A stretch of 53,937 bases of DNA from Coriobacteriia bacterium (GTDB lineage: Bacteria; Actinomycetota; Coriobacteriia; Anaerosomatales; Anaerosomataceae). Of this stretch, positions 5,816-48,613 are shown piece by piece. Position 1 is the first letter of the stretch, and every line of letters begins with the position of its first letter. Position numbers and translations under genes: made by a program. The stretch is from assembly GCA_026416035.1 (NCBI GenBank), contig JAOAFY010000003.1, forward strand, positions 1 through 53,937. Direction: 5' to 3'. Under the pieces are notes generated by a model. The model saw only the letters and a program-made list of their open reading frames with translations, was not told where the DNA came from and did no database searches.

Positions 5816-8371
5816 TCACTCGCCCGCCAAGCCGTCCGCCTGCGGAGCCCTCGCCCCGCTCGACCCGCCGCGCGGCGGCATGGTCGCCTTGCTGCGCTTC
5901 GGCCGAGCCGGCTGGACGACCGTCTCTGCGGTCAGCTCGCCGTGCGCGAACGCGATCGCGCCGTCTTCGACGCGCAGCTCGACCACGTCGCCCGGATGCC
6001 ATTCGCCCGCAAGGATGCGCTCAGAAAGCGGATCCTCGACCAGGCGCTGGATGGCCCGCCTCAGCGGACGCGCCCCGAGCGCAGGATCGAAACCTTCCTT
6101 CGCAAGCAGAGTGCGGGCCTCCGGCGTGAGCACAAGCCCGATCCCCTGCTCGGCGAGGCGCTCGCGCAGCCTCGACACCATCAGGTCCACGATCGCCTCG
6201 ATCTCCTCAGGCGTGAGGTCGTGGAACACGATGACTTCGTCCACGCGGTTCAAGAACTCCGGCCGGAAGATCTTCTTCAGCTCGCCGGTGACGCGCTCCT
6301 TGAGCGTCTCGTACGGCATCGCATCGGTGGTCTGCATCGTGAACCCGATGGTCTTGCCCTTGGCGATGTCACGCGCGCCGACGTTGCTCGTCATGATGAT
6401 GATGGTGTTCTTGAAGTCGACACGGCGTCCTTGCGCGTCAGTCAGCCGACCTTCCTCGAGTATCTGCAGCAAGACGTTGAAGACGTCCGGGTGGGCCTTC
6501 TCGATCTCGTCGAACAGGACCACCGAGTACGGCTTGCGCCGCACGGCCTCGGTGAGCTGCCCCCCTTCGTCGAAACCGACGTACCCGGGAGGAGAGCCGA
6601 TGAGCCGCGAGACGGTGTGCTTCTCCATGTACTCCGACATGTCGAGCTGGATGAGCGCGTCTTCGCTGCCGAACAGGAACTCAGCGAGTGCCTTGGCAAG
6701 CTCCGTCTTCCCGACACCTGAAGGTCCCAGGAAGATGAACGAGCCTGCGGGGCGCGACGGATCCTTCAGCCCGGCACGGGTGCGGCGGATGGCCTTGCTC
6801 ACAGCCGTGACCGCTTCGTCCTGCCCCACGATGCGCTCGTGCAGCGACGCCTCCATCCTGAGGAGCTTCTGCGTCTCCTCTTCGGTGAGCGAAGCCACCG
6901 GGATCCCCGTCCACATCGAGACGACCTCGGCGATCTCTTTCTCCGTCACCTCGACGACTCGGTTGTTGTCGGGACGTCGCCACTCCTCTTCCATGCGGCG
7001 CTTCTCCGCGAGGATCTGCTTCTCCTTGTCACGCAGCGCCGCGGCCTTCTCGAACTCCTGGGCCTCGATCGCGGCTTCCTTCTCCTGGCGGACCTGCTTG
7101 AGCCGCTCCTCGACCTCGCGGATGCCAGGCGGTGCAGTCATCGTCTTGATGCGCATCTTGGAGCCGGCCTCGTCGATCAGGTCGATCGCCTTGTCAGGCA
7201 AGAAGCGGTCCGAGATGTAGCGGTCGGCGAGCGTTGCGGCCGCGTCGATCGCCGCATCGGTGATCGACACCCTGTGGTGCGCCTCGTACCGGTCGCGCAG
7301 GCCGTACAGGATCGCCTTGGTCTCATCGACGCTCGGCTCTCCGACCATGATCGGCTGGAACCGCCGTTCGAGCGCCGGATCCTTCTCGACGTACTTGCGG
7401 TACTCGTCGAGCGTGGTCGCACCGATCGTCTGGAGCTCGCCGCGCGCCAGCGCTGGCTTGATGATGCTCGCCGCGTCGATTGCGCCTTCCGCCGCACCTG
7501 CACCGACGAGCGTGTGCATCTCATCCACGAACAAGATGATGTCTCCGCGCTCGCGGATCTCCTTCATGACCTTCTTCAGACGCTCTTCGAATTCGCCGCG
7601 GTACTTGCTCCCCGCCACCAAGGCAGCCAGGTCGAGGGTGTACAGCTGCTTGTCGCGCAGCGTCTCGGGCACCTCGTCGCGTGCAATCTTCTGAGCGAGC
7701 CCCTCGACCACCGCCGTCTTGCCCACACCTGGCTCTCCAATGAGCACGGGGTTGTTCTTGGTGCGGCGGGAGAGGATCTGCATGACCCGCTCGATCTCCT
7801 GCTGCCTGCCCACGACCGGGTCGAGCTTGCCTTCGATCGCTGCACGCGTCAGGTTGCGGCCGAACTCATCCAAGAGCGAACCGCCTTCGCCGCCACGGGA
7901 ACGCCGTTCTTCTCCGCCCTCGGCCTGACGTCCGTAGTAGCCTGACAGAAGCTGGATGACCGCCGAACGCACCTTCTCGAGGTCGGCTCCGAGGTTGATG
8001 AGCACCTGAGCGGCGACTCCCTCTCCCTCGCGGATCAGCCCGAGCAGGATGTGCTCAGTCCCGATGTAGTTGTGGCCGAGCTGCAGCGCCTCGCGCAACG
8101 ACAGCTCCAGCACCTTCTTCGCGCGCGGAGTGAAGGGGATGTGACCCGTCGGGACGTAGGTGCCCCTGCCGATGAGCTCCTCGACCTGCTGCCGGACGTC
8201 GTCGAGCGAGATCCGCAGTGATTCCAGCGCCTTTGCGGCCACGCCGTCTGGCTCGCGGATGAGCCCGAGCAGCAGGTGCTCGGTCCCGATGTAGTTCTGG
8301 TTGAGCATCCGCGCCTCTTCTTGCGCGTAGACGACGACGCGTCTGGCTTTTTCGGTGAATCGTTCGAACAT
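5816..8371 (-). CDS. clpC: ATP-dependent Clp protease ATP-binding subunit ClpC
   Basis: [11 protein letters not shown] double Clp-N repeats, two Walker A ([16 protein letters not shown]), UVR-like middle domain, IGF ClpP-docking loop. Confidence 0.97.
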
Positions 8372-10937: not shown

Positions 10938-11588
10938 CTAGACGCGCTCAGACCCGTCGGCCCGCGACAGGTAGTACAGCGTGTGGAGCAGCTCGAGCAC
11001 CGGGTCCGTGTTGTGGAGCGTGACCCCCTCGGGCACGTGGACGAGCGCCGGGGTGTAGTTCAAGATGATGCGCACCCCGGCGCTGCACACCAGGTCCGCC
11101 GCCGCCTGTGCCGCCTCCGGAGGAACTGCGAGCACCGCAATCCGGATGTTTTGGTCCGCCACTACCTGGGGCAGCTCGTCGACGTGCCGCACGATCACGT
11201 CGCCGATCCGCTTGCCGACTTTCTGCGGGTCGTTGTCGAAGACCGCCGTGACGTAGAACCCGTGCTGCCTCAGCCCGTCGTACCCCGCGATGGCCGATCC
11301 GAGATTCCCGGCGCCGACCAGAGCGAGGCGATGCACATGATCGGCTCCCAGGATTCGCTGGATGCTGTCGACGAGCAGTGCGATGTCGTATCCGACGCCG
11401 CGCTTCCCGAACGAGCCGAAGTGCGTCAGGTCGCGGCGGATCTGGGCCGGGTTGACACCGGTGAGCTCCCCGAGACGCGCAGACGACACAGTCGTCCGAC
11501 CCTCGTGACGGAGCTGGATCAGTGCACCGAGGTAGACGGGCAAGCGTTCGACGACGCCAGCCGGGATGTCGTGCTGCGTACCGGTCAT
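10938..11588 (-). CDS. rex: Redox-sensing transcriptional repressor Rex
   Basis: ERLPVYL, SSARLGE..G..PAQIRRDL, FGKRGVGY, VGAGNLG Rossmann, LNYTP. Confidence 0.96.
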   Translation of the reverse strand: MTGTQHDIPAGVVERLPVYLGALIQLRHEGRTTVSSARLGELTGVNPAQIRRDLTHFGSFGKRGVGYDIALLVDSIQRILGADHVHRLALVGAGNLGSAIAGYDGLRQHGFYVTAVFDNDPQKVGKRIGDVIVRHVDELPQVVADQNIRIAVLAVPPEAAQAAADLVCSAGVRIILNYTPALVHVPEGVTLHNTDPVLELLHTLYYLSRADGSERV

Positions 11589-17250: not shown

Positions 17251-19326
17251 CTAGTGAATCAGCCGCACGTGGCAGTACGAGCACTCGGTCGGCTTGTGGC
17301 AGTCGAAGCAGGGCTCTGCGCCGGTCTTCTTGACGATGTTCGGGTGATACGTCCGCCACGCCTGGTTGGCCACCGCACCCTTGTGATGGCAGTTGTCGCA
17401 GAAGTACTGGCTGTGGCAGTTGACGCACACTGGCTTCGTCAGCTTCTTGGCCTGGAAGTCGGCCTTGTGGGTGTCCTTGAAGTCGGCCGGATGCGGCATC
17501 GGCAGCTTGTGGCAGTTCTTGCAGAACTTGGCCTCCACACCGCCCACCCCGTGGCAGTAGTCGCAGCTGTCGGTCTGCGCCTTGTAGGCAGCCGAGTGCT
17601 TCGCTGCCTTGCCGAGCGCAAGGTTGCGCGTCCAGTCAGCAGCCTTGTGCGAAGCTGGCAGCGCCTTGAGCTTCGTGTGGCAGTCCACGCAGAACTGCTT
17701 GTTCTCGTGGCACTTCTCGAAGCACGGTCCAGTGCCCTTGGCGGCCACAGCCTTCGGGTGCTGCTGCTGCCATGGCACGCCGTTGATGGCGCCAGCGTGA
17801 TGGCAGTCGGAGCAGACCTCCTTGAAAGTGTGGCAGTTGGCGCACAGCTGCGGAGTCTTGCGGCCGGACACGTGGTTCTTCTTGAAGGTGTCAGGGTGCG
17901 GCATCTCCATGCCGTGGCAGCCCTTGCAGAACTTGGCGTTCGTACCGCCTGGGCCGTGGCACACGTCGCAGCTGTCGATCGCCTTCATCGCAGACAGCGC
18001 GTGCTTGCCGGACGGCTCAGCCGCCTTCTCGCCGTACTTGGTCACGGTCAGCCTGTCGCGCAGCCACTTCGCATCCTTGTGCGAGCTCGGCAGGGGCTTG
18101 AGCCTGGTGTGGCACTCCACGCAGAACTTCTGATCGTGGCACGCGCCGAGGCACGGGCTCACGCCGTTCGTCGTGACCGCCTTGGCATGCTGCGTCCTCC
18201 AGGCCACCTTCGGATCGAACTTCCAGTTGACCTTCGTGCCGTGATGGCACTCGTTGCAGAACTGGTAGTTCGTCTTCTTGACCTGGTGGCACAGGTCGCA
18301 CTTGTCCATCTTCGTCTTAGCGACCTGCGGGTGCGTCTTCTCTTTGAATTCGGCCGGGTGCGGCATCTCCATGCCGTGGCAGCCCATGCAGAAGGTCGCC
18401 TTCACGTGGCAGGTGGCGCAGTAGTCGACCTTGTCGACTGCGACCAGGTGCAGCCCCTCGCCTTCGGCGCCCTCTTCAGCCTTCTCGCCCTCCGCGGCCT
18501 TCTCGCCCTCCGCGGCCTCTCCGCCTTCAGACGCTTCGGCTTCTCCCTCGACAGGCTTGCCGGTCGAGCGATCCACCTTGGCCATGGCAAGCTTCGCGTG
18601 GCCCTTCGGGTAGAAGTCCTTGGCCTTGTGCGACGGCGGCTTCAGATCGAAGTCGGCAGGATGGCATGCCGAGCACTTGCCCGGCGCCTTGATGCCGCCC
18701 GCGGGCGGCTCCGCCGTGAGCGTGTGGCACCGGAAGCACGCGGTCATCGACATGAAGTTCTGGTGCTTGACGCTCTTCTTCTTGGTCTTCGGGTCGGTCA
18801 GGACCGGTTCCCAGTCGCCGCTCTCGTTGTGAGCGACACGGTTGTGGCACGCGGTGCAGTGGATCTCCTTCTTCTCGTGCGCCTCGTGGTCGATCTTGAT
18901 CCCGGGGCTCGGGGTCACCTTGCGCGTGGCGAGGTTGTGGCACTGCGTGCACTGCCGCGAACCCATCTCCTCGGTGTTCATCGCGAGGTGGCTGTCGGGG
19001 TTCAGCGGAAGCTCGAAGTTGTTCGTCACGGTCAGCACGAGCTCGCCGAGCGCCTTGGCCTTCTTCAGGGTGAACGTGATGGGATCGGAGTTGACCGGCT
19101 CGTGGCACGACATGCACGAGACCATGTTGTGGGACGAACGGTCGTACGCGGCGATGGAGTCATCCTGGACCTTGTGGCACACGCTGGCGCAGAACCAGTA
19201 GGTCGACGTCGCGCCAAACGCGATCACGATGAACGCTGCAAGCGCCAGGACGACGACGCCGGTCCAGATGACGTACCGTGGTCGCCGCACCGGATCTTTG
19301 AACCCGGCCAGTGAGATCTTCGCCAT
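17251..19326 (-). CDS. Membrane-anchored 24-heme cytochrome c (NapC/NirT-like head + three hexaheme modules)
   Basis: Counted 21 CxxCH + 3 CX3CH (CASVCH, CLGACH, CFEKCH); one N-terminal TM helix followed by TYWFC..CH..Y..S.H...C.SCH as in NapC/NirT; RBS GAGGAG spacing favours ATG 19326 over 19332. Confidence 0.93.
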   Translation of the reverse strand: MAKISLAGFKDPVRRPRYVIWTGVVVLALAAFIVIAFGATSTYWFCASVCHKVQDDSIAAYDRSSHNMVSCMSCHEPVNSDPITFTLKKAKALGELVLTVTNNFELPLNPDSHLAMNTEEMGSRQCTQCHNLATRKVTPSPGIKIDHEAHEKKEIHCTACHNRVAHNESGDWEPVLTDPKTKKKSVKHQNFMSMTACFRCHTLTAEPPAGGIKAPGKCSACHPADFDLKPPSHKAKDFYPKGHAKLAMAKVDRSTGKPVEGEAEASEGGEAAEGEKAAEGEKAEEGAEGEGLHLVAVDKVDYCATCHVKATFCMGCHGMEMPHPAEFKEKTHPQVAKTKMDKCDLCHQVKKTNYQFCNECHHGTKVNWKFDPKVAWRTQHAKAVTTNGVSPCLGACHDQKFCVECHTRLKPLPSSHKDAKWLRDRLTVTKYGEKAAEPSGKHALSAMKAIDSCDVCHGPGGTNAKFCKGCHGMEMPHPDTFKKNHVSGRKTPQLCANCHTFKEVCSDCHHAGAINGVPWQQQHPKAVAAKGTGPCFEKCHENKQFCVDCHTKLKALPASHKAADWTRNLALGKAAKHSAAYKAQTDSCDYCHGVGGVEAKFCKNCHKLPMPHPADFKDTHKADFQAKKLTKPVCVNCHSQYFCDNCHHKGAVANQAWRTYHPNIVKKTGAEPCFDCHKPTECSYCHVRLIH
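17894..18385. repeat. 30-bp exact direct repeat inside the cytochrome gene (17894-17923 and 18356-18385)
   Basis: gggtgcggcatctccatgccgtggcagccc occurs twice, 462 bp apart, in the GCHGMEMPHP segment of modules 1 and 2. Confidence 0.9.
18479..18518. repeat. 18-bp tandem repeat encoding AEGEKA in the acidic linker
   Basis: gccttctcgccctccgcg twice plus a partial copy. Confidence 0.85.
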
Positions 19327-19404
19327 ACGCATCTCTCCTCGCTCGTCCCGGATCTCAGCGTCGCACGCGACAGAAGCGGCCCCTCGGCCCGCTGCATGCG
19401 CCTA

Positions 19405-19502: not shown

Positions 19503-20648
19503 TCACTTCACGGCCATGGAATCGACGAGGCGGTTCAGCTCCGTGATCGCAGCCGCGACCTGGCGAGCCGCCTCGGCGGCCTGCTGCGAGACCGATGCGA
19601 TCTCCTTCATGGAGAGCACGACCTGGTCAGACGCGCTTCGCTGCTGCTGGGTCGCGATGGATATCTGCTTGGCTGCGTCGGTCGTCTCCTCGACTTGCGC
19701 CACGATGCGCTCGAGCGCGTCTTGCGTGCTTTCTGCCAGCCGCTTGCCCTCGTTCACCTTGTTCGCTGCCTTCTCCGTCTGCATGATGAGCGCCGAGGTC
19801 GATGCCTGGATCTCTCGCACGACCCTGCCAATCTCCTGGGTGGACTCGGTCACCGACTCGGCAAGCTTGCGAATCTCCTCGGCCACGACGGAGAATCCTT
19901 TCCCTGCTTCGCCCGCACGAGCGGCCTCGATGGCAGCGTTGAGCGCGAGGATCTTCGTCTGCTCGGCGATCTCGTCGATGATGGTGAGCACTCTGCCGAT
20001 CTCTTGGCTGCGCTCCCCCAGGGCGAGGATGCGGTCCGAGGACTGCTGGGTCGTCAGGCGGATCTCCTCGATGCCCTCAGCCGTATCGTGGACCGCCTGC
20101 AACCCTTCTTCGGCGCTCGCGAGCGTCCGCTCTGCGATGCGCACGACGGCGGACGAGTTTTCGGCTATCTGGCTGGAGGTCTGGGCAAGTTCCTCGACCG
20201 TCGCCGATGTCTCGGTCACCGCAGCAGCCTGCTCGGCAGCTCCGCTCGCCTGCTCCTCGGTCGCCGCCAGGACTTGCGCCGTGAGTGCCCGGATGTTCGT
20301 CGTCATCGCACGGATCTGATCCAGCAGCGTCGAGATGTTCGAGAACACCCGGTCTGCCTCGGAGGCCAGACCCTCAAGCCCCTTCGCATCGTGCACAGAG
20401 ATACCAAGCGTGCGTCCGGCTTTAGCCAACACCTCCCTGAACGGACGCTCGGAGATACGCTGCGCCAGGAAGTGGCACCCGATGCCCAGACCTACCCCCG
20501 CCCCAACACAGGCCAGCACGAAGAGAGCCAGCGCTATGCTGCTCTTCGGAGTGACGAAGAGCAGTGCGAAAGGCGGGAACAGAAGACCGACGACCATTCC
20601 CGCCACGACGAACGCGTACAGCTCCCGCTTCTTCACGCCGTTGCTCAT
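19503..20648 (-). CDS. Methyl-accepting chemotaxis protein, two TM helices, no extracellular sensor domain
   Basis: [38 protein letters not shown] signalling hairpin; start set at MSNGVKKR. Confidence 0.93.
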
Positions 20649-20756
20649 GTGCAACCCCGTTCCGCTGCGACTCCTCCGAACCGTGGCCGCCCCTCGCCCC
20701 GTTCGGACACATACTAGCAATTAGGGCGCTGCACCGCACTGGCAGCCTCAACACGC

Positions 20757-20786
20757 TTGCTAGACATACCCGTTGGGGTATATCAT
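20757..20786 (+). promoter_or_regulatory. Promoter with a CsoR/RcnR-family-like palindrome between -35 and -10
   Basis: TTGCTA(20757-62)-N18-TATCAT(20781-86); perfect ATACCC-GTTG-GGGTAT at 20766-20781. Confidence 0.65.
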
Positions 20787-20814
20787 GGTCTCGAACGAGT
20801 GCTGAGGAGGATCA

Positions 20815-21018
20815 ATGCGAGCATACTCTGTCGACCTGAACGTGTGCGACCGGTCGCCTGCCTGTCCGGCCCGACGCATCTGCCCGAAAGGCGCCATCGT
20901 CCCAAGGCCAGGCGGCCCATATCCGGGCTACAATGGGTACGAGGTTGACGAGAGCCTGTGTGCCGGATGCGGCGTGTGCGCACGCGTGTGCCCGACCGGC
21001 GCCGTCACGCTCGCGTGA
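20815..21018 (+). CDS. Small 4Fe-4S dicluster-type ferredoxin-like protein
   Basis: Canonical CAGCGVCARVCP plus atypical CDRSPACPARRICP; GAGGAGG RBS. Confidence 0.9.
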   Translation: MRAYSVDLNVCDRSPACPARRICPKGAIVPRPGGPYPGYNGYEVDESLCAGCGVCARVCPTGAVTLA

Positions 21019-21031
21019 GAAGGGAAGCGAC

Positions 21032-21367
21032 ATGTCAGAACCCATCGTGACGGTGCAGGTCTTCGACTTCCCCGTCGAGACGAACTGCTTCTCGGGAGGC
21101 TGAGGCCCATCGTGGTCTCCGGCGGAGATCACTGAGCTCGTACGCTCTGAGGTGCAGACCCGGTTCGGGGACGCCGCTCGCGTCGAGTACCTGGACACCT
21201 CACGGCCGGACGTGCTGACAGAGCATCGCGAGATGATCGATGCGATACGGGAGAACGGGTGGATCTACCCCGTGACCGTGATCGACGGCGAACCGGTCTA
21301 CGAGGGGGCGGTCTCGTACCCGGGCATCCTGCGCGCGATCCAGGCGAAGCTCCAGCAGCTCGCCTGA
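21032..21367 (+). CDS. Candidate selenoprotein, thioredoxin-like fold, C19-x4-U24, 111 aa
   Basis: ATG 21032 with AGGGAAG RBS; MSEPIVTVQVFDFPVETNCFSGG-UGA(21101-21103)-GPSWSPAEITELVRSEV continues in frame into the 21152..21367 ORF (YPVTVIDGEPV cis-Pro-like motif); SECIS-like hairpin follows the UGA. Confidence 0.85.
21104..21138 (+). promoter_or_regulatory. Bacterial SECIS-like stem-loop
   Basis: Upper stem GTGGTCTCC(21112-20)/GGAGATCAC(21124-32), 9 bp with one G-U; apical loop GGC starting 17 nt after the UGA; lower stem GGCCCA/TGAGCT with one mismatch; UC bulge. Confidence 0.8.
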
Positions 21368-21392
21368 AACGGCTTCGTCGAAGCGTCTCCCC

Positions 21393-21680
21393 TCATCGCG
21401 CGTAGCGACGATACAGGCCGACCAGCCCCGACTCCCAGAAGATCCGCGCGACCTCTGATACCGGGAGGCGCCGCCCGAGCGTCGCGTCGTAGGCAGCCCG
21501 CCTTCTTGGGTCACTGAGCACGGCATACGCCTCGTTGAGCGCGACCATGGCCTCGTGCGCGGCTTCGTCCCCAGCGTGCACGTCAGGGTGCCGCTTGCGC
21601 GCGAGCACGCGGTAGGCCTTCTCGATCACCTCGGGATCGGCGTCCCGGGAGACCTGAAGCACGGCGTAGTGGTCGCGCAC
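21393..21680 (-). CDS. Small J-domain (DnaJ-like) protein
   Basis: DHYAVLQV..A....IEKAYR.LARKRHPD...LNEAYAVLSDP.RR..YD with HPD motif. Confidence 0.92.
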   Translation of the reverse strand: MRDHYAVLQVSRDADPEVIEKAYRVLARKRHPDVHAGDEAAHEAMVALNEAYAVLSDPRRRAAYDATLGRRLPVSEVARIFWESGLVGLYRRYAR

Positions 21681-21681
21681 C

Positions 21682-23673
21682 TCAGTGCTCCCTGCACACG
21701 GCGGTCGGTGCGACGCCAGGGTCGAGGTAGAGCTCCATCACGTCCGGGCACCGTTCGTTCGCGAGCAGCATGGTCTGCGTGCACACCCGTACCCGCACGA
21801 GGCCGTCCGGGGCATCTCCAGCAGCCGGCTGCCCACCGTCAGACGGGCGGGCGCTCTTCGCCTGAACGGCCTTGCTCATGAAGCGTTGCCAGATACGGGC
21901 AGGATAGCTCCCTCCAGTGACCTTGATGCCGTGGACGTTCGTCATCGAGACCTGCCCTTGCCGATAGCCGACCCACACGGCGGTGCACAATCGACCCGAC
22001 CAGCCCACGAACCAGGCATCACGGTACGCCTGGGTGGTCCCCGTCTTGCCAGCGGCCCAGGTCTGGATCTTCGCGGCCTGTCCGGTTCCCTGCTCGATGA
22101 CGTCGTGCAGCATCGCCGCCGCAACGCTTGCGACGGCGGGCGGTATCACGCGGCGCTGGACGGACGCGGGTTCGAGCACCGCCTTGCCGCTGCTGTCCTC
22201 GACCTTCCTCACGGCAACCGGTTCGCGACGGATGCCGCCCGATGCGATGGTCCCGTAGGCGCTCGCCATCTCCAACGGAGAGACCCCTGTCGTCAGCCCG
22301 CCCAACGCGATCGCTGGATTCGCATCCAGCTTCGTGACGATGCCCATGTCCTGAGCGATCCGGACGACGTTCTGGGGACCGACCTTCATCACGAGCCGCG
22401 CGTACACGGCGTTCACCGACCAATTGGTCGCAGCAGCAAGCGTCATCGAGGGCGCCGTCTTGTCGTTCTCGTAGTTCTGCACCCGCCAGATCCCGTCCTT
22501 GACCCGCGTGGTGTACGGAGTCGCAGAGAACACGTCTGCTGGTTTCACTCCCTGTTGGAGCGCCGTGACGAGCACGAACGGTTTGAACGCTGAGCCAGGC
22601 TGCCGCTTGCCTTGGACTGCGAGGTTGAACTGCTCCTGGGAGAAGTCCCTGCCGCCGACCATCGCGAGGACCTCGCCGTTGCTGACATCTACGCACACGA
22701 GGGCGACTTCCGGGTCCTTGGGATCGGGAAGCAGCGCCTGCGCCGCCTCCTCAGCGTAACGCTGAAGGACCGGGTCGAGCGTCGTGAAGACGCGCAGCCC
22801 TCCTTCGAAGACCTCGCGAGACCCCAGCCGTTCTATCAGCTGCTGTTTGACGTGCTCGACGAAGTAAGGGGCCGCATTCGCGGACTCTGCCTTCCGTGGC
22901 GCGAGCCTGATGGCTGCGGCCTTGGCTTGCACGAGCTCCGCATCGCTTATGTATCCCAGCTCACGCATCCGCTCAAGGACCCGGTCGCGACGCTGCCGGG
23001 CAGCGTCGGGGTGCACGACGGGGTCGTATCGCCCTGGAGACGCGATGATGCCCGCGAGCAGCGCCGCCTCCGCGAGGTCCACGTCAGCGGCACGCTTGCC
23101 GAAGTACCGCTGCGCGGCGCTCTCGACACCGTATGCCCCCTCGCCGAAGTACACGAGGTTCAGGTAGGTCTCAAGGACCCGTTTCTTGTCGGTCCGGGCT
23201 TCGAGCTGATACGCGAGCAGGGCCTCCTTGATCTTCCTCGTGAGCGTGCGCTCGCCACCGGTGAACAGCAGCTTCACGACCTGCTGAGTGATCGTGCTGC
23301 CGCCTTGGGTCGCCTCTCCCGTGCTCGCGTTCTGCCGCAACGCCCGGGCGATCCCCTCGAAGTCGACGCCTTCATGCTGGTAGAAGCGATGGTCTTCGAT
23401 CGCGATGACGGCGTCTTGCAAGTGCTGTGGGACCTGCTCGAGCGGCACCACAGTCCTGTCCTGCTCCGCGTGCCACTCGGCGAGAACGGAGCCGTCAGCC
23501 GCATACACGACCGTCGTCTGGGCGGGCCGGAACGCGGGGCTGTCAGAGCTCAGATCCGGAAGCGTCTTGCTGAGGTTGTAGAGGTACACACCGGCCGCAG
23601 TGAACATCACGACGAGCAGACCGAGCACCGTCGCGATCGTCTTGAGCACCCGCTCGAAGGTCTTCGTGCGCAC
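21682..23673 (-). CDS. Class A penicillin-binding protein (PBP1A family)
   Basis: IEDHRFYQH, GGSTITQQ, RKIKE, YLNLVYFG transglycosylase motifs; RQPGSAFK (SxxK), SVN, KTG; start GTG 23673 after GGAGGA. Confidence 0.95.
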   Translation of the reverse strand: MRTKTFERVLKTIATVLGLLVVMFTAAGVYLYNLSKTLPDLSSDSPAFRPAQTTVVYAADGSVLAEWHAEQDRTVVPLEQVPQHLQDAVIAIEDHRFYQHEGVDFEGIARALRQNASTGEATQGGSTITQQVVKLLFTGGERTLTRKIKEALLAYQLEARTDKKRVLETYLNLVYFGEGAYGVESAAQRYFGKRAADVDLAEAALLAGIIASPGRYDPVVHPDAARQRRDRVLERMRELGYISDAELVQAKAAAIRLAPRKAESANAAPYFVEHVKQQLIERLGSREVFEGGLRVFTTLDPVLQRYAEEAAQALLPDPKDPEVALVCVDVSNGEVLAMVGGRDFSQEQFNLAVQGKRQPGSAFKPFVLVTALQQGVKPADVFSATPYTTRVKDGIWRVQNYENDKTAPSMTLAAATNWSVNAVYARLVMKVGPQNVVRIAQDMGIVTKLDANPAIALGGLTTGVSPLEMASAYGTIASGGIRREPVAVRKVEDSSGKAVLEPASVQRRVIPPAVASVAAAMLHDVIEQGTGQAAKIQTWAAGKTGTTQAYRDAWFVGWSGRLCTAVWVGYRQGQVSMTNVHGIKVTGGSYPARIWQRFMSKAVQAKSARPSDGGQPAAGDAPDGLVRVRVCTQTMLLANERCPDVMELYLDPGVAPTAVCREH

Positions 23674-30627: not shown

Positions 30628-30698
30628 GGCTCCTCACCAGATGAACGCGACCTCGTGCAGTACGAGGATACCGCGTTTCGACGCCGCTGGCACGCAGC

Positions 30699-31907
30699 CT
30701 AGGCGTGACGAAGCGGTTCCTGCGTCCAACCCGCGATGGACACGCACACCATCGAGGTGCCGATCACGGCAAGGGACGCAGGGACCCCGATCCGCTGCAC
30801 GAGGATGCCTGCCAGCACGTAGCCAGTCGCAAGCGCTGCCCCAGCGAGCATCCTCTGGACGGCGTAGATCCTGCCCAGGTGGCGTGCGGAAGCGTGCGCC
30901 TGCACCATGGCGCGCGCCGGCACGTAGAACCACATGTTCGCGAAGCCCACGAGAAAGACGAACGGCAGCGCCATGACCAGGCTCCTGGAGGTCGCCGTCG
31001 CAGCGATGAACACGCCAGCAGCAGCCAGGCCGATGATGTACTTGATGCCGGAACGCTCTGATCCGCTCTGACCTACAGCGACGCTTCCGACGAGCAAGCC
31101 GACCGTGATCGCAGCGTCGAGCGCCGCCAGCCCGACGGCTCGACCATCCACCGGTCCTGAGCCGAAGTGCTTGAGCGCAAGACCATGCATGGCCGTGTTC
31201 GCCGCAGCGATGGGCACTGCAGCGAGGGCATACGTCGCGGTAAGCGGTCGGATCAGCGCGTTGTCACGAATGCCCCGGAGGCCATCGGCGATCTGTGCGA
31301 GCATCGGCCCGGCCGCCGATGCCTCACCAGCCGCCCGTCGAGGTACCCGCATGCTGGCGATGACCAGCGCCGAGACCGCGAAGGTGGAGGCGTCGATGAA
31401 GAAGGCGTTCGACGCACCGAGCCTCGCGACCAGGCCCGCGCCAATGGCCAGACCAGCAATCTCCGACACGGACATCGTGGCTTGGTCCAGCGAGTTCGCT
31501 GCCACTAGGTCGTCTTCCGCGACGATCTCTGGGACGAGCGAGAATCGCGCCGGCTCGAAGAACAGCGAGGCAGTCGAAACGACGAAAGCAGCGGCGTAGA
31601 AGAACGCGATGTTGCGCTGCGCCAGGAAGGGGATCGCGCACACGAGCACAGCTCGGATGACGTCCGCTCCCACCATGACCCGCTTGCGGTCCGACCTGTC
31701 TACCGCAGCACCGATGGGAAGAGCGAACAGCACCGCCGGGAGGGTAGTGACCGCCAGCATCGCGCCGACGTGGACCACCGAACCTGTGAGCTTGTAGACG
31801 AGGATGCTTGCGCCGATCTGATGGATCTTGTCTCCGAGCACCGAGACAAGCTGAGCGATCCACAACGCTCGATACTGCCGGCTCCTGAGCGGCTGGATGA
31901 TGCGCAC
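30699..31907 (-). CDS. MFS transporter (DHA3/macrolide-efflux-like)
   Basis: About 12 TM helices, GAAVDRSDRKRVMV motif A, LVAANSL. Confidence 0.9.
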   Translation of the reverse strand: MRIIQPLRSRQYRALWIAQLVSVLGDKIHQIGASILVYKLTGSVVHVGAMLAVTTLPAVLFALPIGAAVDRSDRKRVMVGADVIRAVLVCAIPFLAQRNIAFFYAAAFVVSTASLFFEPARFSLVPEIVAEDDLVAANSLDQATMSVSEIAGLAIGAGLVARLGASNAFFIDASTFAVSALVIASMRVPRRAAGEASAAGPMLAQIADGLRGIRDNALIRPLTATYALAAVPIAAANTAMHGLALKHFGSGPVDGRAVGLAALDAAITVGLLVGSVAVGQSGSERSGIKYIIGLAAAGVFIAATATSRSLVMALPFVFLVGFANMWFYVPARAMVQAHASARHLGRIYAVQRMLAGAALATGYVLAGILVQRIGVPASLAVIGTSMVCVSIAGWTQEPLRHA

Positions 31908-40000: not shown

Positions 40001-40372
40001 TCACCGTGGGGAGGACTGAAGGCACTTCTTGACCGTCTCGAGCACCTTGGTCGGCTGGAAGGGCTTCACCAGGAAATCCATCGCACCGGCCTCCAGCGCC
40101 TCCACGATGAGCTTCTGCTGACCCATCGCGCTGACCATGAGCACCCGTGCGTGAGGGTCGTGCTCCCGGATCTTCCTCAGGGCCTCGATGCCATCCATCT
40201 CCGGCATCGTGATATCCATGGTGGTGAGGTCTGGCCGCACCTCCAAGTACTTCTCCACGGCGTCCCTGCCGTTCACGGCCTCGTGGATGACGTAGCCCTC
40301 CTTGGACAGGATGTCGCGGATCATCATCCGCATGAATGCTGCGTCGTCGACGACGAGCACCGACCTAGACAT
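40001..40372 (-). CDS. cheY: Chemotaxis response regulator CheY
   Basis: LVVDDAAFMR, TMDITMPEMDG, VSAMGQQ, KPF. Confidence 0.95.
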   Translation of the reverse strand: MSRSVLVVDDAAFMRMMIRDILSKEGYVIHEAVNGRDAVEKYLEVRPDLTTMDITMPEMDGIEALRKIREHDPHARVLMVSAMGQQKLIVEALEAGAMDFLVKPFQPTKVLETVKKCLQSSPR

Positions 40373-40856
40373 CTGCGCTCGCCTCCTCTGCATCCGTCAC
40401 GGAGACGAATACCGCAGGTGGAACCAGTTTGTCGGGCACGAGCAGCATCACTAGCCGCCCTTCATGGTCCGCAACTCCCTCAAAAGCGTCGGCAAGCTCG
40501 CTGGACGCAAGCGACTCGGGAGTCTGCATAACCGCAGCAGCCGACATGCGGGCGACCTCGTGCGCTGAGTCGACGGCGAACCCCACGAGCCCGGCAGTGG
40601 TCTCCGTCACGATCACGCGAGAGCTTCCTGAGCGCGAGGAGCCTTCGCCGAACAGCCGACGGCCAAGATCCACAACGGGCACGATCTGCCCGCGCAGGTT
40701 TATGACGCCTTCCACGAAGTCGGGAGCGTGCGGCACGGGAGTCGGCTTCTCATACCTGATGATGCTCGTGACGCGCTCGACCGGCAGCCCGAACTCCTCT
40801 TCACCGAGCGTGAAGAGCACCACCTGACGGACGGCGTCGCTCGAGGTGCCTTCCAT
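40365..40856 (-). CDS. cheW: Chemotaxis coupling protein CheW
   Basis: VLFTLGEEEFG, PHAPDFVEGVINLRGQIVPVVDL, GFAVDS. Confidence 0.95.
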   Translation of the reverse strand: MEGTSSDAVRQVVLFTLGEEEFGLPVERVTSIIRYEKPTPVPHAPDFVEGVINLRGQIVPVVDLGRRLFGEGSSRSGSSRVIVTETTAGLVGFAVDSAHEVARMSAAAVMQTPESLASSELADAFEGVADHEGRLVMLLVPDKLVPPAVFVSVTDAEEASADV

Positions 40857-40865
40857 GACGAGCTC

Positions 40866-42194
40866 CTACTCCACCTTGAAGCGGCGGACGGACTCTTCGA
40901 GCCGCCTGGCCATCTCGGCGAGCTCCTGCGCGGACGACGAGATCTCCTGCATGCAGGCCGTTTGCTGCTGGGCCGCAGCAGCGGTCTCCTCGGCGGACGC
41001 CGCGTTCTCCTCGACGACCGCCGCGATGTCGTGCATCGCCTTGTCCACTTCCATGGTGCGCTGCGCCTGCTCAGCCATCGCGGCAGCGATCTCCTCTGCA
41101 AGCGTCGCGGTCTTCGTGACCGCCTCCGTGATGCTGCGCAGCGCCTCGCCCGTCCGGCCGACGACCTCGCTGCCGATGACGACCTCGTTCGCGCCGCGCT
41201 CCATGTACTTGAGCGCCTTGGCCGTCTCGGCCTGCACGTCTTTGATCAGCTCCCCGATCTGCTGGGCCGCCTTGCCAGAACCTTCTGCGAGCTTGCGGAC
41301 TTCCTCGGCCACGACCGAGAAGCCACGGCCTGACTCTCCGGCACGCGCTGCCTCGATCGCCGCGTTCAGAGACAGCAGGTTCGTCTGGTCGGCGATCGAC
41401 GTGATGACATCGACGATGTGGCCGATCTCCTCTGAACGCTTGCCGAGCATCTCGACCGACTCGGCGAGCGTCTCGATGGCGTTGCGAACATCGGCGATCT
41501 TCTCGATGGCCTCGGCGGTCGCCTGCTCGCCTTGCAACGCAGCCTTGGCCGCTTCTTCGCTGGTCTTGCTCGCCTCCTCGGCGCGCCGCGCCACGGCATT
41601 CACCGTTCCGGTGATCGACTCCATGGCCGAGGTCGTCTCCTCGACCTTGCGAGACTGGAGCTCCGCGCCATGCGCGATCTGCTGCACCGAGGAGGAGATC
41701 TCCATCGAAGACGAGTTGATTTCCTCAGATGACGCCGAAAGCTGGGTCGCCGCGTTCGTGACCTGCTCGGAGGAGCGGCGCACACCGGCTGCGATCTCGC
41801 CGAGCGATGCGATGAGGTGGTTGCAGTCCTCCGTCAGCCTGCCGATCTCGTCATCGTGCAGCTTCTCGGCCCGCACCGTGAGATCGCCGTCTGCGGCCCT
41901 CGCCATGACTGCACCGAGGTCTTGCAGCGGCTGGAGGACGCGTCGCCGGAAGGCGCGCCACCAGGCGAGCTGGCCCGGAACGGCGCAGATCAGCATGGCG
42001 ATGGCGCCGAACAGGGCCGTGTACAGGAGCTTGTCGCCATGGATGCCGAGCACGGCCACCGCGAACACCCCGGTGAGCGTCAACCCGATCGCTACCGCCG
42101 GACCGATCGTGGCCCAGGTCCAGAGCGTGAACGTGAGCAGCAGCCCCTTGCGAGCGTCCGAACCCGGCTGGAACATGCTGTCTCGCGCCATCAA
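40866..42194 (-). CDS. Methyl-accepting chemotaxis protein (2 TM, minimal loop, HAMP)
   Basis: Two TMs, HAMP (QPLQDL..GDLTVR..DEIGRL), [38 protein letters not shown]. Confidence 0.95.
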
Positions 42195-42276
42195 CGACCC
42201 CTCCTCGGAACGGTCTTCCGCCTCGCACCCGCCTAAGGATACTACACGCCCTCGGACGCGACTCCTCAGACCCGCC

Positions 42277-43119
42277 CTAACGCTCGTACGGCTTCCTGTA
42301 CACCCGCTCCCGGCCGTTCACCAGTTCGAAGCTCGGCTTGGTCCCGGGCGGTATACGCTCGCTCCTTCCCAACACCAGGTAGCCCCCGCGCGCGAGGGCG
42401 GACCAGAACACCCCAAGAAGCCGGTCCTGCTCCTGCCGGTTGAAGTAGATGAACACGTTCCGGCAGAACACCACGTCCACGACGTGTATCGGCGAATCGG
42501 TGAGCAAGTTGAGCTGCTGGAACTTGCATAGACGCGCAACCTCGGGCTTGATGACGAAGGTGTCCTCGCGCTCCTCGATGAAGCGACGCCTGTCTGCGGC
42601 AGGGATGTGGGCCAGCTGTTGCAGAGGGTATTCGGCTCGGCGCGCGATCTCGAGCGCCTTCGGATCGATGTCGGTCCCGAGGACAGACAGCAGGAATCCG
42701 CCGTGGTCGGGTCCCATGCCCGCGAGGAACGACATGGCGATCGAGTACGCCTCCTGACCGGTCGAACAGCCGGCTGACCAGACACGGATCATCCGCTGGT
42801 GGCGCCGCCGCTTCTCTTCGAGGAGCTGCGGCACGATCTGAGAGCGGAAGACATCGAACACCGTCGGGTCGCGGAAGAACTGCGTCACGTTAATCGTCAG
42901 CGTGTCGATGAGCTTCGAGTACTCTTCCGGATGCTCATCGAGGTACGCAGCGTACTGACGGTAGCTGTGGAGGCCGAGCGCGTTGAGCCGCGTGGCCAGC
43001 CGACGCTCGACGTAGCGCGTCCGGTATTGCGCCAGGTCCAAGCCCCGTTCATCGCGGATCTTCGCGATGATGCGATCGAGGTTGCCCCGGTAGACCGTCT
43101 CCGCCGCGTGGGGATCCAT
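42277..43119 (-). CDS. cheR: Chemotaxis methyltransferase CheR
   Basis: [51 protein letters not shown]; start MDPH after GGGAGG. Confidence 0.95.
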
Positions 43120-43150
43120 TCGCCTCCCGACTGCCGAGCTGCCACCCTCC

Positions 43151-43160
43151 ATTGTAGAAT
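43151..43160. promoter_or_regulatory. Overlapping divergent -10 hexamers (TACAAT minus, TAGAAT plus)
   Basis: attgtagaat in the 74-nt gap between divergent cheR and L,D-transpeptidase genes. Confidence 0.5.
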
Positions 43161-43193
43161 ACGCGTACCACTCCTCCGTGCGACAGGAGCCGC

Positions 43194-44231
43194 ATGCACC
43201 GAGCACCGACGCACCTGCGCATCCTCGCGTGCATCGCCGCCTGCGCCTGCTTCGTGCTGAGTGCGGGTGCGGCAGCGGCGATCGCTCAGGACTACGTCTC
43301 CCGCGACGTCCTCGCGCCCGGGTCGGCGGTAGCGACCACCTCGGTGGGCGGCATGAGGCTCAGCGAGGCCAAGCAGGCGATCGAACGAGATCTCGCTGCC
43401 TCGTTCGGGCAGACCATGACCGTGATGGCCGGACAGCGCACCGTGCAGGTGCAGCCGTCACAGTTCCTGCGCGTAGACCTCGCCCGGACGTTGGGAAGCC
43501 TCGCGCAAGCCAAGGGCCGGACGCCTACGGCGCGCAGGCTGCTGGCTCAGGCCACCGGCGCACCGTACGGTACCAAGGTCCCTCCGCAGATCGCCGTCGA
43601 CCGCGCCGCACTCGATGCGTGGGTGGCTACCCTCGCGGCGTCGGTGGGGACCCCGGCTTCCGATGCCACACTCACGGTACAGGACCGTCAGCTCGTGGCG
43701 ATCCCTGAACGGGTAGGCTTCTCCATCGACCCTCGCAAGGCCGCAGACGCAGTGGCTGTGGCACTGGCACGCGGAGACGACAGCGTCCGTCTCCCCGTCA
43801 CCCGGATCGAGCCGAAGGTCACGCGCGAGGACCTCGGCATGGCGATCCTCGTCAGACGGGCCGACCGTCGGCTCTTCCTCTACGAAGACGGCAGGCTCGT
43901 GAAGGTCTATCGCGTTGCGGTCGGCGCGCCTGGCTTCCCGACGCCTCGAGGTCGCTGGACGATCGTCCGAAAACGCTACATGCCGACGTGGGGAAACCCG
44001 GGGTCGGACTGGGCGAAGGACATGCCTCGGTTCATCCCGCCCGGACCGAACAACCCCCTCGGCACGCGCGCTTTGGACCTGAGCGCGCCGGGAATCCGCA
44101 TCCACGGCACGAACAAGGACTACTCGATCGGTCAAGCGGCCTCGCACGGTTGCATGCGGATGCACCGCTGGGACATCGAAGACCTCTACGACCGAGTGCC
44201 GGTCGGCACACCCGTGTTCATCATCGACTGA
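43194..44231 (+). CDS. L,D-transpeptidase family protein with N-terminal PG-binding region
   Basis: Signal peptide; RRLFLYE..YRVAVG..TPRG, NPLGTRAL, IRIHGT, SHGCMRM. Confidence 0.93.
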   Translation: MHRAPTHLRILACIAACACFVLSAGAAAAIAQDYVSRDVLAPGSAVATTSVGGMRLSEAKQAIERDLAASFGQTMTVMAGQRTVQVQPSQFLRVDLARTLGSLAQAKGRTPTARRLLAQATGAPYGTKVPPQIAVDRAALDAWVATLAASVGTPASDATLTVQDRQLVAIPERVGFSIDPRKAADAVAVALARGDDSVRLPVTRIEPKVTREDLGMAILVRRADRRLFLYEDGRLVKVYRVAVGAPGFPTPRGRWTIVRKRYMPTWGNPGSDWAKDMPRFIPPGPNNPLGTRALDLSAPGIRIHGTNKDYSIGQAASHGCMRMHRWDIEDLYDRVPVGTPVFIID

Positions 44232-44475
44232 GATCGCCCGGGACGCGATCCTCGATCTCGACGCGACCCGTCCACGCGATGCCGGACGCCGAAAGGACCG
44301 ACTCCGTACGCTCCGCGTCTTCCAGCGCCGTCCTGACGGCGATGCCGCACAGCGCCCCCAGAGACTTCGGGGTAGGCACGGCCGCAACGGGAATCCCCGC
44401 ATCGGCAAGCGCCTTCTCGGCAGCCAGAGCATCGTGGGTCGTCCCGAACCCATACACGACGAAGCGGAGCATCAC
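44221..44475 (-). CDS. DUF3343 protein (putative S/Se carrier)
   Basis: F.TTHDALAAEK.L...I....VPTP..L...CGIAVR; start overlaps the desulfurase stop. Confidence 0.85.
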   Translation of the reverse strand: MMLRFVVYGFGTTHDALAAEKALADAGIPVAAVPTPKSLGALCGIAVRTALEDAERTESVLSASGIAWTGRVEIEDRVPGDLSR

Positions 44476-45626
44476 GCCTGGCACACCTCGCGCACGGCCT
44501 CGACCGCCCGCTCCACGTCGTCTTCGGTCACACCACGGCCCACGCTGAAACGGACCGCGCCCGTCTCAAGCGTTCCAGCCGAAGCGTGTGCCGCTGGCGC
44601 GCAGTGCAGTCCTGAGCGGACTGCGATGCCGAAGCGCGAATCGAGTTCGTATGCGATCCGGTCCGGTTCGACCGACTCGTGGATGATGCTGACGACCGGG
44701 GCCCGCTCTTCGCCGGGAGCCGGTCCGAGCACGGCAATCCCGGGGACTTCGAGCAGTCCGTCCACGAGCCTCTGCACGAGACGCCGCTCGTGCGCCATGA
44801 TCGCATCCAGCTCGCGCGCGAGCACTCCCACGCCTGCCGCGAGTCCCGCGATGGCGGGGACGGGAGGGGTGCCTGCTTCGTAGCGATCCGGGCGTGCGTC
44901 AGGCATGGCAGGCGAGACCGACTCCCCTCCGCTTCCGCCCTGGACCAGCTCGGGCAGCTCAAGACCCGGTGCAAGGTACACCACGCCGACGCCCTGGGGT
45001 CCCAGCAGCCCCTTGTGGCCGGACGCCACGTAGACGTCCGCGCCGAGAGCTCGCACGTCGACACGCAGGTGTCCGGCCGCCTGGGCTCCGTCGACCACGA
45101 GCACGGCACCGTGCTCGTGGGCGATGTCGGCCAGGTCGGCCACGGGCTGGATCGCGCCGGTGACGTTCGACGCGTGCTGGCACACGACCGCCTTGGTCTT
45201 GCCTGCCGCGATGATCGCCTCGGCCGCATCGAGGTCCACGCGCCCAGCGCCATCGACGGGCATGCGCACCACCTCCACGCCGTGTGCTTCGAGCACCGCC
45301 AGGGGCCGCATCACTGCGTTGTGTTCCACGCTGGAGATGACGACGCGATCACCGGCGCCAAGCAGGCCCTTGAGCGCCATGTTCAGGCCGAAGGTGCATC
45401 CCGGCACGAACAACAGGTCGCGAGCATCGCCCGCTCCGAGGAACGACGCCACTGCGCTTCGGGCCTCCAAGACGAGCCGCGCCGCCTCCAGTGCCAGCCG
45501 GTGCGCACTGCGATGGGGGTTGCCGCCCGCTGGTCCGAGCGCCCGCTTAACCGCCGCGAACACCTCGGGCGGCTTCGGCCACGACGTCGCTGCGTGGTCG
45601 AGGTAGATGATTCCATCGTGTGGCAT
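44472..45626 (-). CDS. Class V PLP enzyme, cysteine desulfurase/selenocysteine lyase-like
   Basis: YLDHAATSWPKP, GNPHRS, EHNAVMRPL, HASNVTG, DGAQAAG, GHKGLLGPQG (PLP Lys), YEAGT, RSGLHCAP (catalytic Cys). Confidence 0.92.
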   Translation of the reverse strand: MPHDGIIYLDHAATSWPKPPEVFAAVKRALGPAGGNPHRSAHRLALEAARLVLEARSAVASFLGAGDARDLLFVPGCTFGLNMALKGLLGAGDRVVISSVEHNAVMRPLAVLEAHGVEVVRMPVDGAGRVDLDAAEAIIAAGKTKAVVCQHASNVTGAIQPVADLADIAHEHGAVLVVDGAQAAGHLRVDVRALGADVYVASGHKGLLGPQGVGVVYLAPGLELPELVQGGSGGESVSPAMPDARPDRYEAGTPPVPAIAGLAAGVGVLARELDAIMAHERRLVQRLVDGLLEVPGIAVLGPAPGEERAPVVSIIHESVEPDRIAYELDSRFGIAVRSGLHCAPAAHASAGTLETGAVRFSVGRGVTEDDVERAVEAVREVCQA

Positions 45627-45629
45627 CCG

Positions 45630-46109
45630 CTATCCGTGCCCCCCGCCGGCCATCATCTCGACCGCGTGCTCCAACTGGTCCGCGACGATAGCGAATGCCT
45701 GCCGAACCGCTTTCTCGCTGCCAGGGAAGTTGATGATGAGCGTCTTGCCCCGCTGGGCCGCGACGCCGCGGGACAGCATCGCGCGCCTCGTCGTTGCAAG
45801 GCTCTCGGCGCGGATCGTCTCCGCGATTCCCGGCACTGCCCGCTGCGCGAGCGACATCGTCACCTCCGGGCACACGTCCCGTGGCCCAAGGCCGGTGCCG
45901 CCCGTCGAGAACAGGACGTCCACCTCGTCCACGTCGCACATCTCCGTGATGGCGAGCGCGATCGCCTCCGCTTCGTCCGGCACGACGTGGTATGCAGCCA
46001 CGAGCCATCCGCGGCTCTCCGCGAGCTCGATCAGCGCCTTGCCGGACGTGTCTTCAGCTTCGCCGGCTGCACGCGTGTCAGAACACGTGAGCACCCCGAT
46101 CCTGAGCAC
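45630..46109 (-). CDS. mogA: Molybdopterin adenylyltransferase MogA/MoaB
   Basis: LTCSD, EDTSG, STGGTGLGPRDVCPE, LSRGVA, NFPGS. Confidence 0.92.
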   Translation of the reverse strand: MLRIGVLTCSDTRAAGEAEDTSGKALIELAESRGWLVAAYHVVPDEAEAIALAITEMCDVDEVDVLFSTGGTGLGPRDVCPEVTMSLAQRAVPGIAETIRAESLATTRRAMLSRGVAAQRGKTLIINFPGSEKAVRQAFAIVADQLEHAVEMMAGGGHG

Positions 46110-47065: not shown

Positions 47066-47066
47066 C

Positions 47067-48612: not shown

Positions 48613-48613
48613 C

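Follow-up and report, generated by a model that had tools for sequence, protein, structure and literature searches.

Repressors of the CsoR family bind type-2 operators in which ATAC and GTAT dyads surround C- and G-tracts and which overlap the core promoter (PMC3902906, PMC8643695). The sites of Streptomyces CsoR follow the consensus ATATACCCCTNAGGGGTATAT, and the TAC-X9-GTA dyad that is common to CsoR sites is essential for binding (PMC3902906), while the CstR site of S. mitis is ATATACCCTTATGGGGTATAT (PMC8643695). TTHA1953 of T. thermophilus has a spacing of its own with an inner TAC-N4-GTA, and the addition or removal of a single base lowers its affinity by 10-15-fold (PMC10318464), which indicates that spacing matters in the CsoR family. 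The regulons of RicR-type members take in small genes that are distant from the regulator gene (PMC3944814). Among proteins with a thioredoxin fold, the DUF1462/YuzD family (PF07315) includes SA0798 of S. aureus (Protein Data Bank [PDB] entry 1xg8) and carries the name 'disulfide oxidoreductase YuzD'. Here, we describe an operon at positions 20757-21367 of a 53,937-nucleotide stretch of DNA from a Coriobacteriia bacterium (contig JAOAFY010000003.1 of assembly GCA_026416035.1; the whole stretch is hereafter called the window), in which a palindrome resembling the CsoR-family operators precedes a small ferredoxin-like gene and a DUF1462/YuzD-like gene whose in-frame UGA is very probably read as selenocysteine (Sec). 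We propose that this locus encodes an inducible, ferredoxin-driven Cys/Sec oxidoreductase in a repressor-controlled bicistronic operon, a reading to which we assign a probability of about 0.45.

The selenoprotein gene (21032-21367, plus strand) has 111 codons and starts 13 nt past the stop codon of the ferredoxin gene. The UGA at 21101-21103 (plus strand) is assigned to Sec codon 24 from the conserved TGA and from Cys homologues, and the predicted read-through product is MSEPIVTVQVFDFPVETNCFSGG-U-GPSWSPAEITELV..., with the motif C19-FSGG-U24-GPSW. TGA is found at the same codon in every orthologue (24 distinct nucleotide sequences), and the 19 codons 5' of it show a pS of 0.58 at synonymous sites, a pN of 0.22 at nonsynonymous sites and a pN/pS of 0.37, which points to purifying selection on the upstream codons; downstream of TGA, pN/pS ranges from 0.12 to 0.53. 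The full-length homologues P0014 (CCSSGC-C-GPAW), P0020, P0037 and P0047 have Cys at the Sec position, and the P0014 locus shares its operon and operator with the Sec loci. In two further entries (P0027 and P0039) a W stands at this position because the gene caller used another code; their DNA is TGA. A hairpin resembling a selenocysteine insertion sequence (SECIS), with a 9-bp stem (GUGGUCUCC/GGAGAUCAC) and a GGC triloop (21112-21132, plus strand), begins 8 nt after the UGA and takes the form UCUC-N-GGC-N'-GAGA, as predicted from its fold, frozen synonymous sites and covariation. The codons of the stem are frozen (TCT or ACT in 24/24 sequences; CCG, GAG and ATC each in 24/24), TCT accounts for 8% of the serine codons of the window genes, and the serine codon that lies two positions further upstream is free to vary; pS is 0.24 in the hairpin stretch versus 0.48-0.58 in the flanks. 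In L036, a relative of the Sec gene, the loop-closing C-G pair is changed to U-A with a synonymous change on the 3' side, while the hairpin of locus L034 keeps the GGC loop on an 11-bp stem of unlike sequence that is closed by A-U (z = -3.5), and the loops across the relatives are GGC or GGA. In an alignment of 12 sequences the helix is 92.6% paired with three pairs changed on both sides, a covariation score reached by 0/500 shuffles, and the Cys form has a degraded hairpin (z = +1.4). Because the TGA is kept, coding conservation is found on both sides of it, Cys homologues exist and the hairpin covaries, these comparisons leave little doubt that the gene is a genuine selenoprotein gene in which UGA is decoded as Sec.

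The Sec protein scores 35.4 bits with Pfam DUF1462 (cut-off 25) over residues 24-103, and the precomputed Pfam assignment of all its 71-79 aa database homologues is likewise DUF1462. The search of representative proteins took as queries the 87 residues that follow the UGA and the Cys homologue P0014, and the fold evidence comes from an AF2 model of the Cys homologue P0014 (pLDDT 88.6), which stands in for the window protein and is 42% identical to it after the UGA. A profile built from six full-length orthologues matched one chain in the PDB, 1xg8, in which Cys22, the second Cys of the YuzD CxxC, aligns with U24, and Foldseek with the P0014 model against the PDB ranked 1xg8 at the top (E = 6e-5), followed by 3ktb (ArsD of Bacteroides vulgatus), thioredoxins and 3mwh/3kgk (E. 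coli ArsD). From the family scores, the 1xg8 profile match and the Foldseek ranking, the protein is predicted to be a thioredoxin fold on the YuzD/ArsD branch with C-x4-U at the start of helix 1. It is like YuzD in passing the Pfam cut-off and in having 1xg8 as its best Foldseek hit and sole PDB sequence match, but differs from it in having C-x4-U instead of CxxC, selenium at the second position, a predicted co-transcription with Fe-S proteins and a conserved operator. With the thioredoxin-fold selenoproteins of the CxxU type (thioredoxin, glutaredoxin, SelW-like and Prx-like proteins) it shares the Cys/Sec pair at the N-terminus of helix 1, the existence of Cys homologues and a SECIS hairpin directly after the UGA; unlike them, it belongs to the DUF1462 family, its spacing varies from C-x4-U here to C-x3-U in L034 and C-x2-U in L037, and its Sec form goes unrecognised by the NCBI annotation. 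The distant member in L037, a contig from a biogas fermenter (991-1347), reads KCRG-U-GPR and has its own hairpin after the UGA; a palindromic operator is not visible there, and an upstream inverted repeat resembles a terminator. Sec forms of the family thus exist in several lineages with differing Cys-Sec spacing.

All 12 database homologues are fragments of 71-79 aa that start past the TGA and that NCBI labels 'DUF1462 family protein', and their annotated downstream starts vary (ATG, GTG and TTG), none of them with a ribosome-binding site. In the literature that we searched, DUF1462/YuzD was not linked to selenoproteins, DUF1462 being treated in connection with peroxiredoxin-like domains, and an ArsD-like selenoprotein was not described. 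Neither the Sec-containing DUF1462/YuzD protein nor its pairing with a ferredoxin was found in any published description, in line with the first-pass annotation of the window, which knew of no account of the gene pair. The locus thus adds a Sec-containing DUF1462/YuzD-like family, shortened to 71-79 aa in the present annotation, to the selenoproteins.

The operon is preceded by a sigma-70-like promoter, TTGCTA-18-TATCAT, the sole promoter-like site found by a promoter scan in 20500-21800, with the -35 hexamer TTGCTA at 20757-20762 and the -10 hexamer TATCAT at 20781-20786 (both plus strand). A perfect inverted repeat, ATACCC-GTTG-GGGTAT, occupies 20766-20781 (no strand), and its core is ATACC-N6-GGTAT, i.e., TAC-X8-GTA. 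This palindrome was initially placed between the -35 and -10 elements; the perfect repeat is present, but its last base doubles as the first base of the -10 hexamer, and three bases of its right arm are common with an alternative -10 hexamer, TATATC (20779-20784, plus strand). The 53.9-kb window has a single ATACC-N6-GGTAT, 0/100 dinucleotide-preserving shuffles have one, and the full palindrome pattern with two mismatches permitted still has this single match in the window. The comparison covered 41 loci, among them 3 from genomes, 22 from metagenomes and several contigs. Exactly one ATACC-N6-GGTAT is found in each of 30 of the 41 loci, every time in the promoter of the Sec-gene operon and never outside it, and the 11 loci without a counted site are three orthologous contigs that are too short upstream, five contigs of distant relatives, two duplicates of those and the mycobacterial ricR control. 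The conservation of gene pair and palindrome on which the first-pass proposal hinged is therefore seen, together with that of the TGA, in about 30 loci. The ATACC and GGTAT half-sites are invariant across the loci, while the flanks and the centre vary (GTTG, CCAT, CATG, TATG, CTAGGG and others). In all orthologous loci TTGC(A/T/G)N sits 1-5 nt 5' of the palindrome, and in the orthologues a TATAAT-like hexamer begins inside or directly after GGTAT with a -35 to -10 spacer of 17-18 nt, such that the distance from -35 to palindrome slides by 1-5 nt while the promoter spacer stays constant. The palindrome is present also in the Cys-form locus L031 and in L034, whose contig is probably that of a Firmicute because of its 47% GC content and the sporulation gene Spore_YtfJ nearby. 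In L034, the ferredoxin and selenoprotein genes are separated by an additional gene (6543-6782) for a 79-aa coiled-coil protein that matches no Pfam family. Judged by this conservation, the palindrome is most likely a real operator to which a protein binds, and its layout is that predicted for a repressor-binding site that occludes RNA polymerase. MerR-type activation was ruled out by the promoter spacer, which is 17-18 nt and not 19-20 nt.

The palindrome shares with the CsoR-family type-2 operators the ATAC/GTAT dyads around C- and G-tracts and the overlap with the core promoter, and in that family, too, small target genes without an adjoining regulator gene are possible. The operators compared were those of S. 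lividans CsoR (ATATACCCCTNAGGGGTATAT), S. mitis CstR (ATATACCCTTATGGGGTATAT) and M. tuberculosis RicR (ATACCCCGCTGGGGTAC). In the case of RicR, PMC3944814 gives the operator in its methods as TACCCCGCTGGGTA, which lacks one G of the genomic RicR operator, TACCCCGCTGGGGTA (L038, 1410-1430); the real DNA upstream of ricR, located in L038 via a 99%-identical RicR, reads GATACCCCGCTGGGGTAC and has the X9 spacing. RicR was therefore dropped as a precedent for X8, and spacings compared from the text of PMC3944814 alone would mislead. The L036 relative of the Sec gene lies directly 3' of a canonical X9 site, TACCCTACAGGGGTA, in a promoter with the layout TTGACT-ACCCTACAGGGGTATGG-TATATT. The palindrome can reasonably, if provisionally, be assigned to the CsoR family; its spacing is atypical, and we give a CsoR-family repressor somewhat better than an even chance of being the regulator. 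If so, a spacing of 8 bp would define a specificity class new to the family, and Cu or persulfide sensing would be linked to selenium-based redox chemistry in anaerobes. Within the window, a gene for a Rex-type redox-sensing repressor (Put_DNA-bind_N and CoA_binding domains; 10938-11588, minus strand) adjoins the genes for GreA and TatA. Rex was ruled out as regulator of the operon, since its known box, TTGTGAA-N4-TTCACAA, is unrelated to the ATACC-N6-GGTAT palindrome, and the sites of the CheY-type receivers that the window also encodes are likewise unrelated to it.

The ferredoxin-like gene (20815-21018, plus strand) follows a ribosome-binding site read from the sequence, GAGGAGG (20804-20810, plus strand), and encodes 67 aa with 7 Cys. 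The protein scores 35.8 bits with Pfam Fer4 (cut-off 21.1) and is also above the cut-off of Fer4_7; its Cys residues form an atypical C11-x5-C17-x5-C23-P arrangement (CDRSPACPARRICP) and one canonical CxxCxxCxxxCP (C49-C59). None of its 56 database relatives falls below 48% identity, and almost all those that carry a name belong to the Coriobacteriia. In several of the related records this small gene was missed by annotation. The two-gene operon first described here, a 4Fe-4S-type protein with a Sec-containing thioredoxin-fold gene 13 nt later, is borne out together with the coordinates of both genes, and so is their co-occurrence: the small ferredoxin is found in 20 of the 22 distinct operons that bear the palindrome, and all 22 have at least one Fe-S partner, the small ferredoxin or a fusion of DUF362 to a 2[4Fe-4S] domain. 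In the two operons without the small ferredoxin (L011 and L024) the operator stands directly before the Sec gene, which is followed by the DUF362-2[4Fe-4S] gene. This fusion is 383-391 aa long (the short L011 contig holds its start alone) and is also encoded in L003, L019, L021, L025, L027 and L035; DUF362 is uncharacterised and a member of the LarA clan (PMC11770544). We regard the three-gene operon with DUF362-2[4Fe-4S] as the ancestral form. The two-gene scope initially given to the system was thus correct for the pair and overlooked this third gene, and it also missed that the constant partner of the palindrome is the Sec gene and not the ferredoxin. Among the Cys homologues, P0037 has a ferredoxin gene upstream, and the stop codon of P0047 overlaps the start of a gene for thioredoxin-disulfide reductase (TIGR01292, 363 bits versus a cut-off of 343), by which P0047 is predicted to be translationally coupled to a bona fide thioredoxin reductase. 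No exporter, P-type ATPase, ars gene or sulfurtransferase was found in the ~35 related loci. P0021 (2852 aa, nine 'matches') is a repetitive adhesin-like protein and was discarded as a false positive.

Based on the fold and the gene linkage, we propose that a tetrameric repressor of the CsoR family, encoded elsewhere, would sit on the operator and block RNA polymerase until it is released by a thiophilic signal that it binds or reacts with, of which Cu(I) and persulfide/reactive sulfur would be the likeliest. The ferredoxin would hand low-potential electrons to the Cys19-Sec24 selenenylsulfide, with the DUF362-2[4Fe-4S] protein also taking part in the ancestral three-gene form, and the reduced selenol/thiol pair may act on oxidised thiol, persulfide or metal-thiolate substrates and so repair disulfide-, persulfide- or metal-thiolate-type damage in strict anaerobes. 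Overall, the system would operate like a thioredoxin system that is driven by ferredoxin and attacks through selenium. It resembles the FTR/FFTR-thioredoxin systems in that low-potential ferredoxin electrons would reach the dithiol of a thioredoxin fold and in that a Cys homologue is coupled to a TrxB-type reductase; it differs from them in that no homologue of FTR or of a flavin reductase is encoded in the operon, the partners being a 7-Cys mini-ferredoxin and DUF362-2[4Fe-4S]. The redox module suggested by the first-pass annotation fits the fold and the coupling of P0047 to thioredoxin reductase, while the detoxification role suggested with it is still conjecture. A more specific version, which we think somewhat unlikely as a whole, is that a new CsoR subfamily reading an 8-spaced operator induces a ferredoxin-powered Cys/Sec reductase that clears persulfide or Cu(I)-thiolate damage, with DUF362-2[4Fe-4S] as its dedicated reductase, in strictly anaerobic Actinomycetota and some Firmicutes. 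If true, it would provide the first functions for DUF362, DUF1462 and the atypical 7-Cys ferredoxin and would place a selenoprotein in a CsoR-type regulon, of which we met no description. The locus in any case gives DUF1462, DUF362-Fer4 and the 7-Cys ferredoxin a shared, testable context.

Several observations weigh against parts of this proposal and lend themselves to other explanations. A gathering-threshold scan of the window with Rfam, which covers bacterial SECIS elements poorly, matched tRNA-Pro alone and no SECIS family, and selA, selB, selC, selD and tRNA-Sec are all absent from the window. Taken with database entries that all begin past the TGA, these results might indicate that the TGA is a true stop that separates a 23-codon leader from a distinct protein of 71-79 aa, or that the gene is a decaying pseudogene. 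We consider this extremely improbable, given that 24 distinct sequences keep the TGA with coding-type conservation on each side, that full-length homologues carry Cys at the TGA codon, that a structured and covarying hairpin stands at SECIS distance, that a fold lacking the N-terminal part would lose strand 1 and the active site, and that the downstream starts vary and have no ribosome-binding site. When the window was scanned for further genes interrupted by TGA, no convincing second selenoprotein emerged, at a low power that missed this gene too. As for the regulator, the operator was originally called CsoR/RcnR-like, which holds for its TAC/GTA dyads, C/G tracts and promoter overlap but not for its spacing: the window and the 30 loci have TAC-X8-GTA, whereas all verified CsoR-family operators have X9, and of the relatives L036 alone has the canonical spacing. 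Neither the window, for which the absence of a regulator gene had been noted from the start, nor ~300 kb of related flanks yielded a PF02583 gene by regular-expression search or by tblastn with four CsoR/RcnR/FrmR-type queries, and the CsoR-family genes looked for on the strength of the first annotation were thus found near none of the related loci searched; in a RicR-seeded protein search, the best 120 of 8000 candidates were all mycobacterial. Six variants of the 14-nt operator core have no occurrence in the searchable literature, and a 5-6-5 palindrome geometry is used by other dimeric regulators too. The spacing, the PF02583 searches, the literature search and the geometry would all suit a regulator from outside the CsoR family, or from an uncharacterised subfamily, that responds to an unrelated signal such as redox state, oxygen or selenium supply. 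We hold this to be possible at less than even odds, for the ATACC(C) half-site beside a G/C tract is the exact CsoR type-2 half-site, L036 has the canonical X9 site before a relative of the same gene, spacing differs among CsoR subfamilies, as the inner TAC-N4-GTA of TTHA1953 illustrates, and RicR-type regulons reach small genes far from the regulator (PMC3944814). Because of the X8 spacing and because a PF02583 gene was not found nearby, the family of the regulator, its inducer (Cu, persulfide, Ni/Co or formaldehyde) and a detoxification role are still inferred.

With regard to the function of the protein, electron transfer from ferredoxin to selenoprotein is deduced from gene linkage alone, the DUF362 gene is not in the operon of the window clade (window, L001, L002, L004 and L006), and the L036 relative stands alone on a short contig as a monocistronic gene with no Fe-S partner. 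In addition, P0014 has a four-Cys motif, CC-x3-CC, that resembles a metal-binding site more than it does a simple redox pair and so keeps metal binding in play. An ArsD/CopZ-like chaperone or buffer would bind a soft metal, such as Cu(I) or As(III), on Cys19 and Sec24 and sequester it or pass it to an exporter whose gene lies elsewhere, the ferredoxin being merely co-induced, e.g., as a spare Fe-S protein during metal stress. ArsD (PF06953; 3mwh, 3kgk and 3ktb) is the second-closest fold, is thioredoxin-like without a classical CxxC, gives weak sequence matches and has a Cys13-x4-Cys18 spacing equal to that of C19-x4-U24, and the operators of Cu(I) sensors are similar to the one found here. 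Nevertheless, the ArsD models score far under their cut-offs (PF06953, 17.0 versus 27 bits; NF033727, 15.6 versus 90 bits), the Sec forms occupy two of the three positions (C19 and U24) of the ArsD triad Cys12-Cys13-Cys18 with no vicinal Cys and without its third Cys, no arsA, arsB or arsR is found in any locus, and an ATPase or exporter gene is absent from the ~35 loci. The operon nearly always comes with Fe-S redox proteins and in one lineage with thioredoxin reductase, a pattern that, with the absence of exporter and ars genes, argues against an ArsD/CopZ-like chaperone, which we deem unlikely, and favours a redox-cycling thioredoxin-like protein with a ferredoxin-type reductant. The Fe-S partner in all 22 palindrome operons could also be read as the mark of a carrier of sulfur, selenium or Fe-S clusters, whose Cys/Sec pair would hold a persulfide or perselenide or aid cluster assembly in the partner; the window has a PF11823 Se/S carrier with a cysteine desulfurase and genes for molybdenum cofactor sulfuration, and Bacillus yuzD presumably adjoins a NifU-like gene. 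Housekeeping assembly of cofactors would, however, seldom be under a tightly repressed promoter, the Se/S carrier genes are 23 kb off and unlinked in other loci, and the thioredoxin reductase coupling in L039 points to plain redox cycling, all of which makes such a carrier improbable.

The sequence was matched in a single run, a DNA run of a hot-spring metagenome, and its relatives are OPB41/Anaerosomatales Coriobacteriia of hot-spring and subsurface origin, including Parvivirga hydrogeniphila (P0003). Such Coriobacteriia are strict anaerobes and use H2 or formate together with either Fe(III) or sulfur compounds (PMC9686372). The operon occurs in the complete or nearly complete genomes of P. 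hydrogeniphila Es71-Z0120, Coriobacteriaceae bacterium EMTCatB1 (BDLO01) and GCA_027345605.1 and on the 535-kb contig Ga0209100_1000002. The very clean ATACC-N6-GGTAT operator and the presence of the Sec gene in the cultured P. hydrogeniphila make the proposal directly testable. Synteny is kept across loci in the order of multihaem cytochrome, methyl-accepting chemotaxis protein (MCP), operon, J-domain protein and penicillin-binding protein, and this conserved local synteny does not look functionally informative. The gene convergent with the operon on its downstream side (21393-21680, minus strand), which had been called dnaJ, is indeed a convergent neighbour, but it encodes a J-domain-only protein of 95 aa that scores 75 bits with TIGR02349 against a cut-off of 377. 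The cytochrome (17251-19332, minus strand) is a 693-aa multihaem c-type protein whose N-terminus is of the NapC/NirT type and which contains many CxxCH motifs; it is syntenic with the operon across Anaerosomatales. An MCP gene at 19503-20720 is divergent from the operon; a chemotaxis cluster at 40001-43206 (minus strand) encodes a CheY-like receiver, CheW, a further MCP (HAMP-MCP) and CheR, and the two cultured Anaerosomatales strains have been described as non-motile (PMC9686372). At 30643-30737 (minus strand), a 95-nt 'tRNA-Pro(agg)' called by ARAGORN overlaps the start of an open reading frame at 30699-31907; unconfirmed by Rfam and with an anticodon that does not match tRNA-Sec, the call is probably spurious. 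Farther along, at 44221-45626 (minus strand), the gene for the putative Se/S carrier (PF11823, 87 aa) lies beside that for a class-V aminotransferase of the cysteine desulfurase/selenocysteine lyase type, and genes for MOSC, MoaA, MoeA, a MobA-FdhD fusion and a ModC-like ABC ATPase with TOBE domains follow up to 53293. The whole of 44221-53293 forms a cluster for molybdenum cofactor and S/Se delivery that may have a bearing on how the organism uses selenium.

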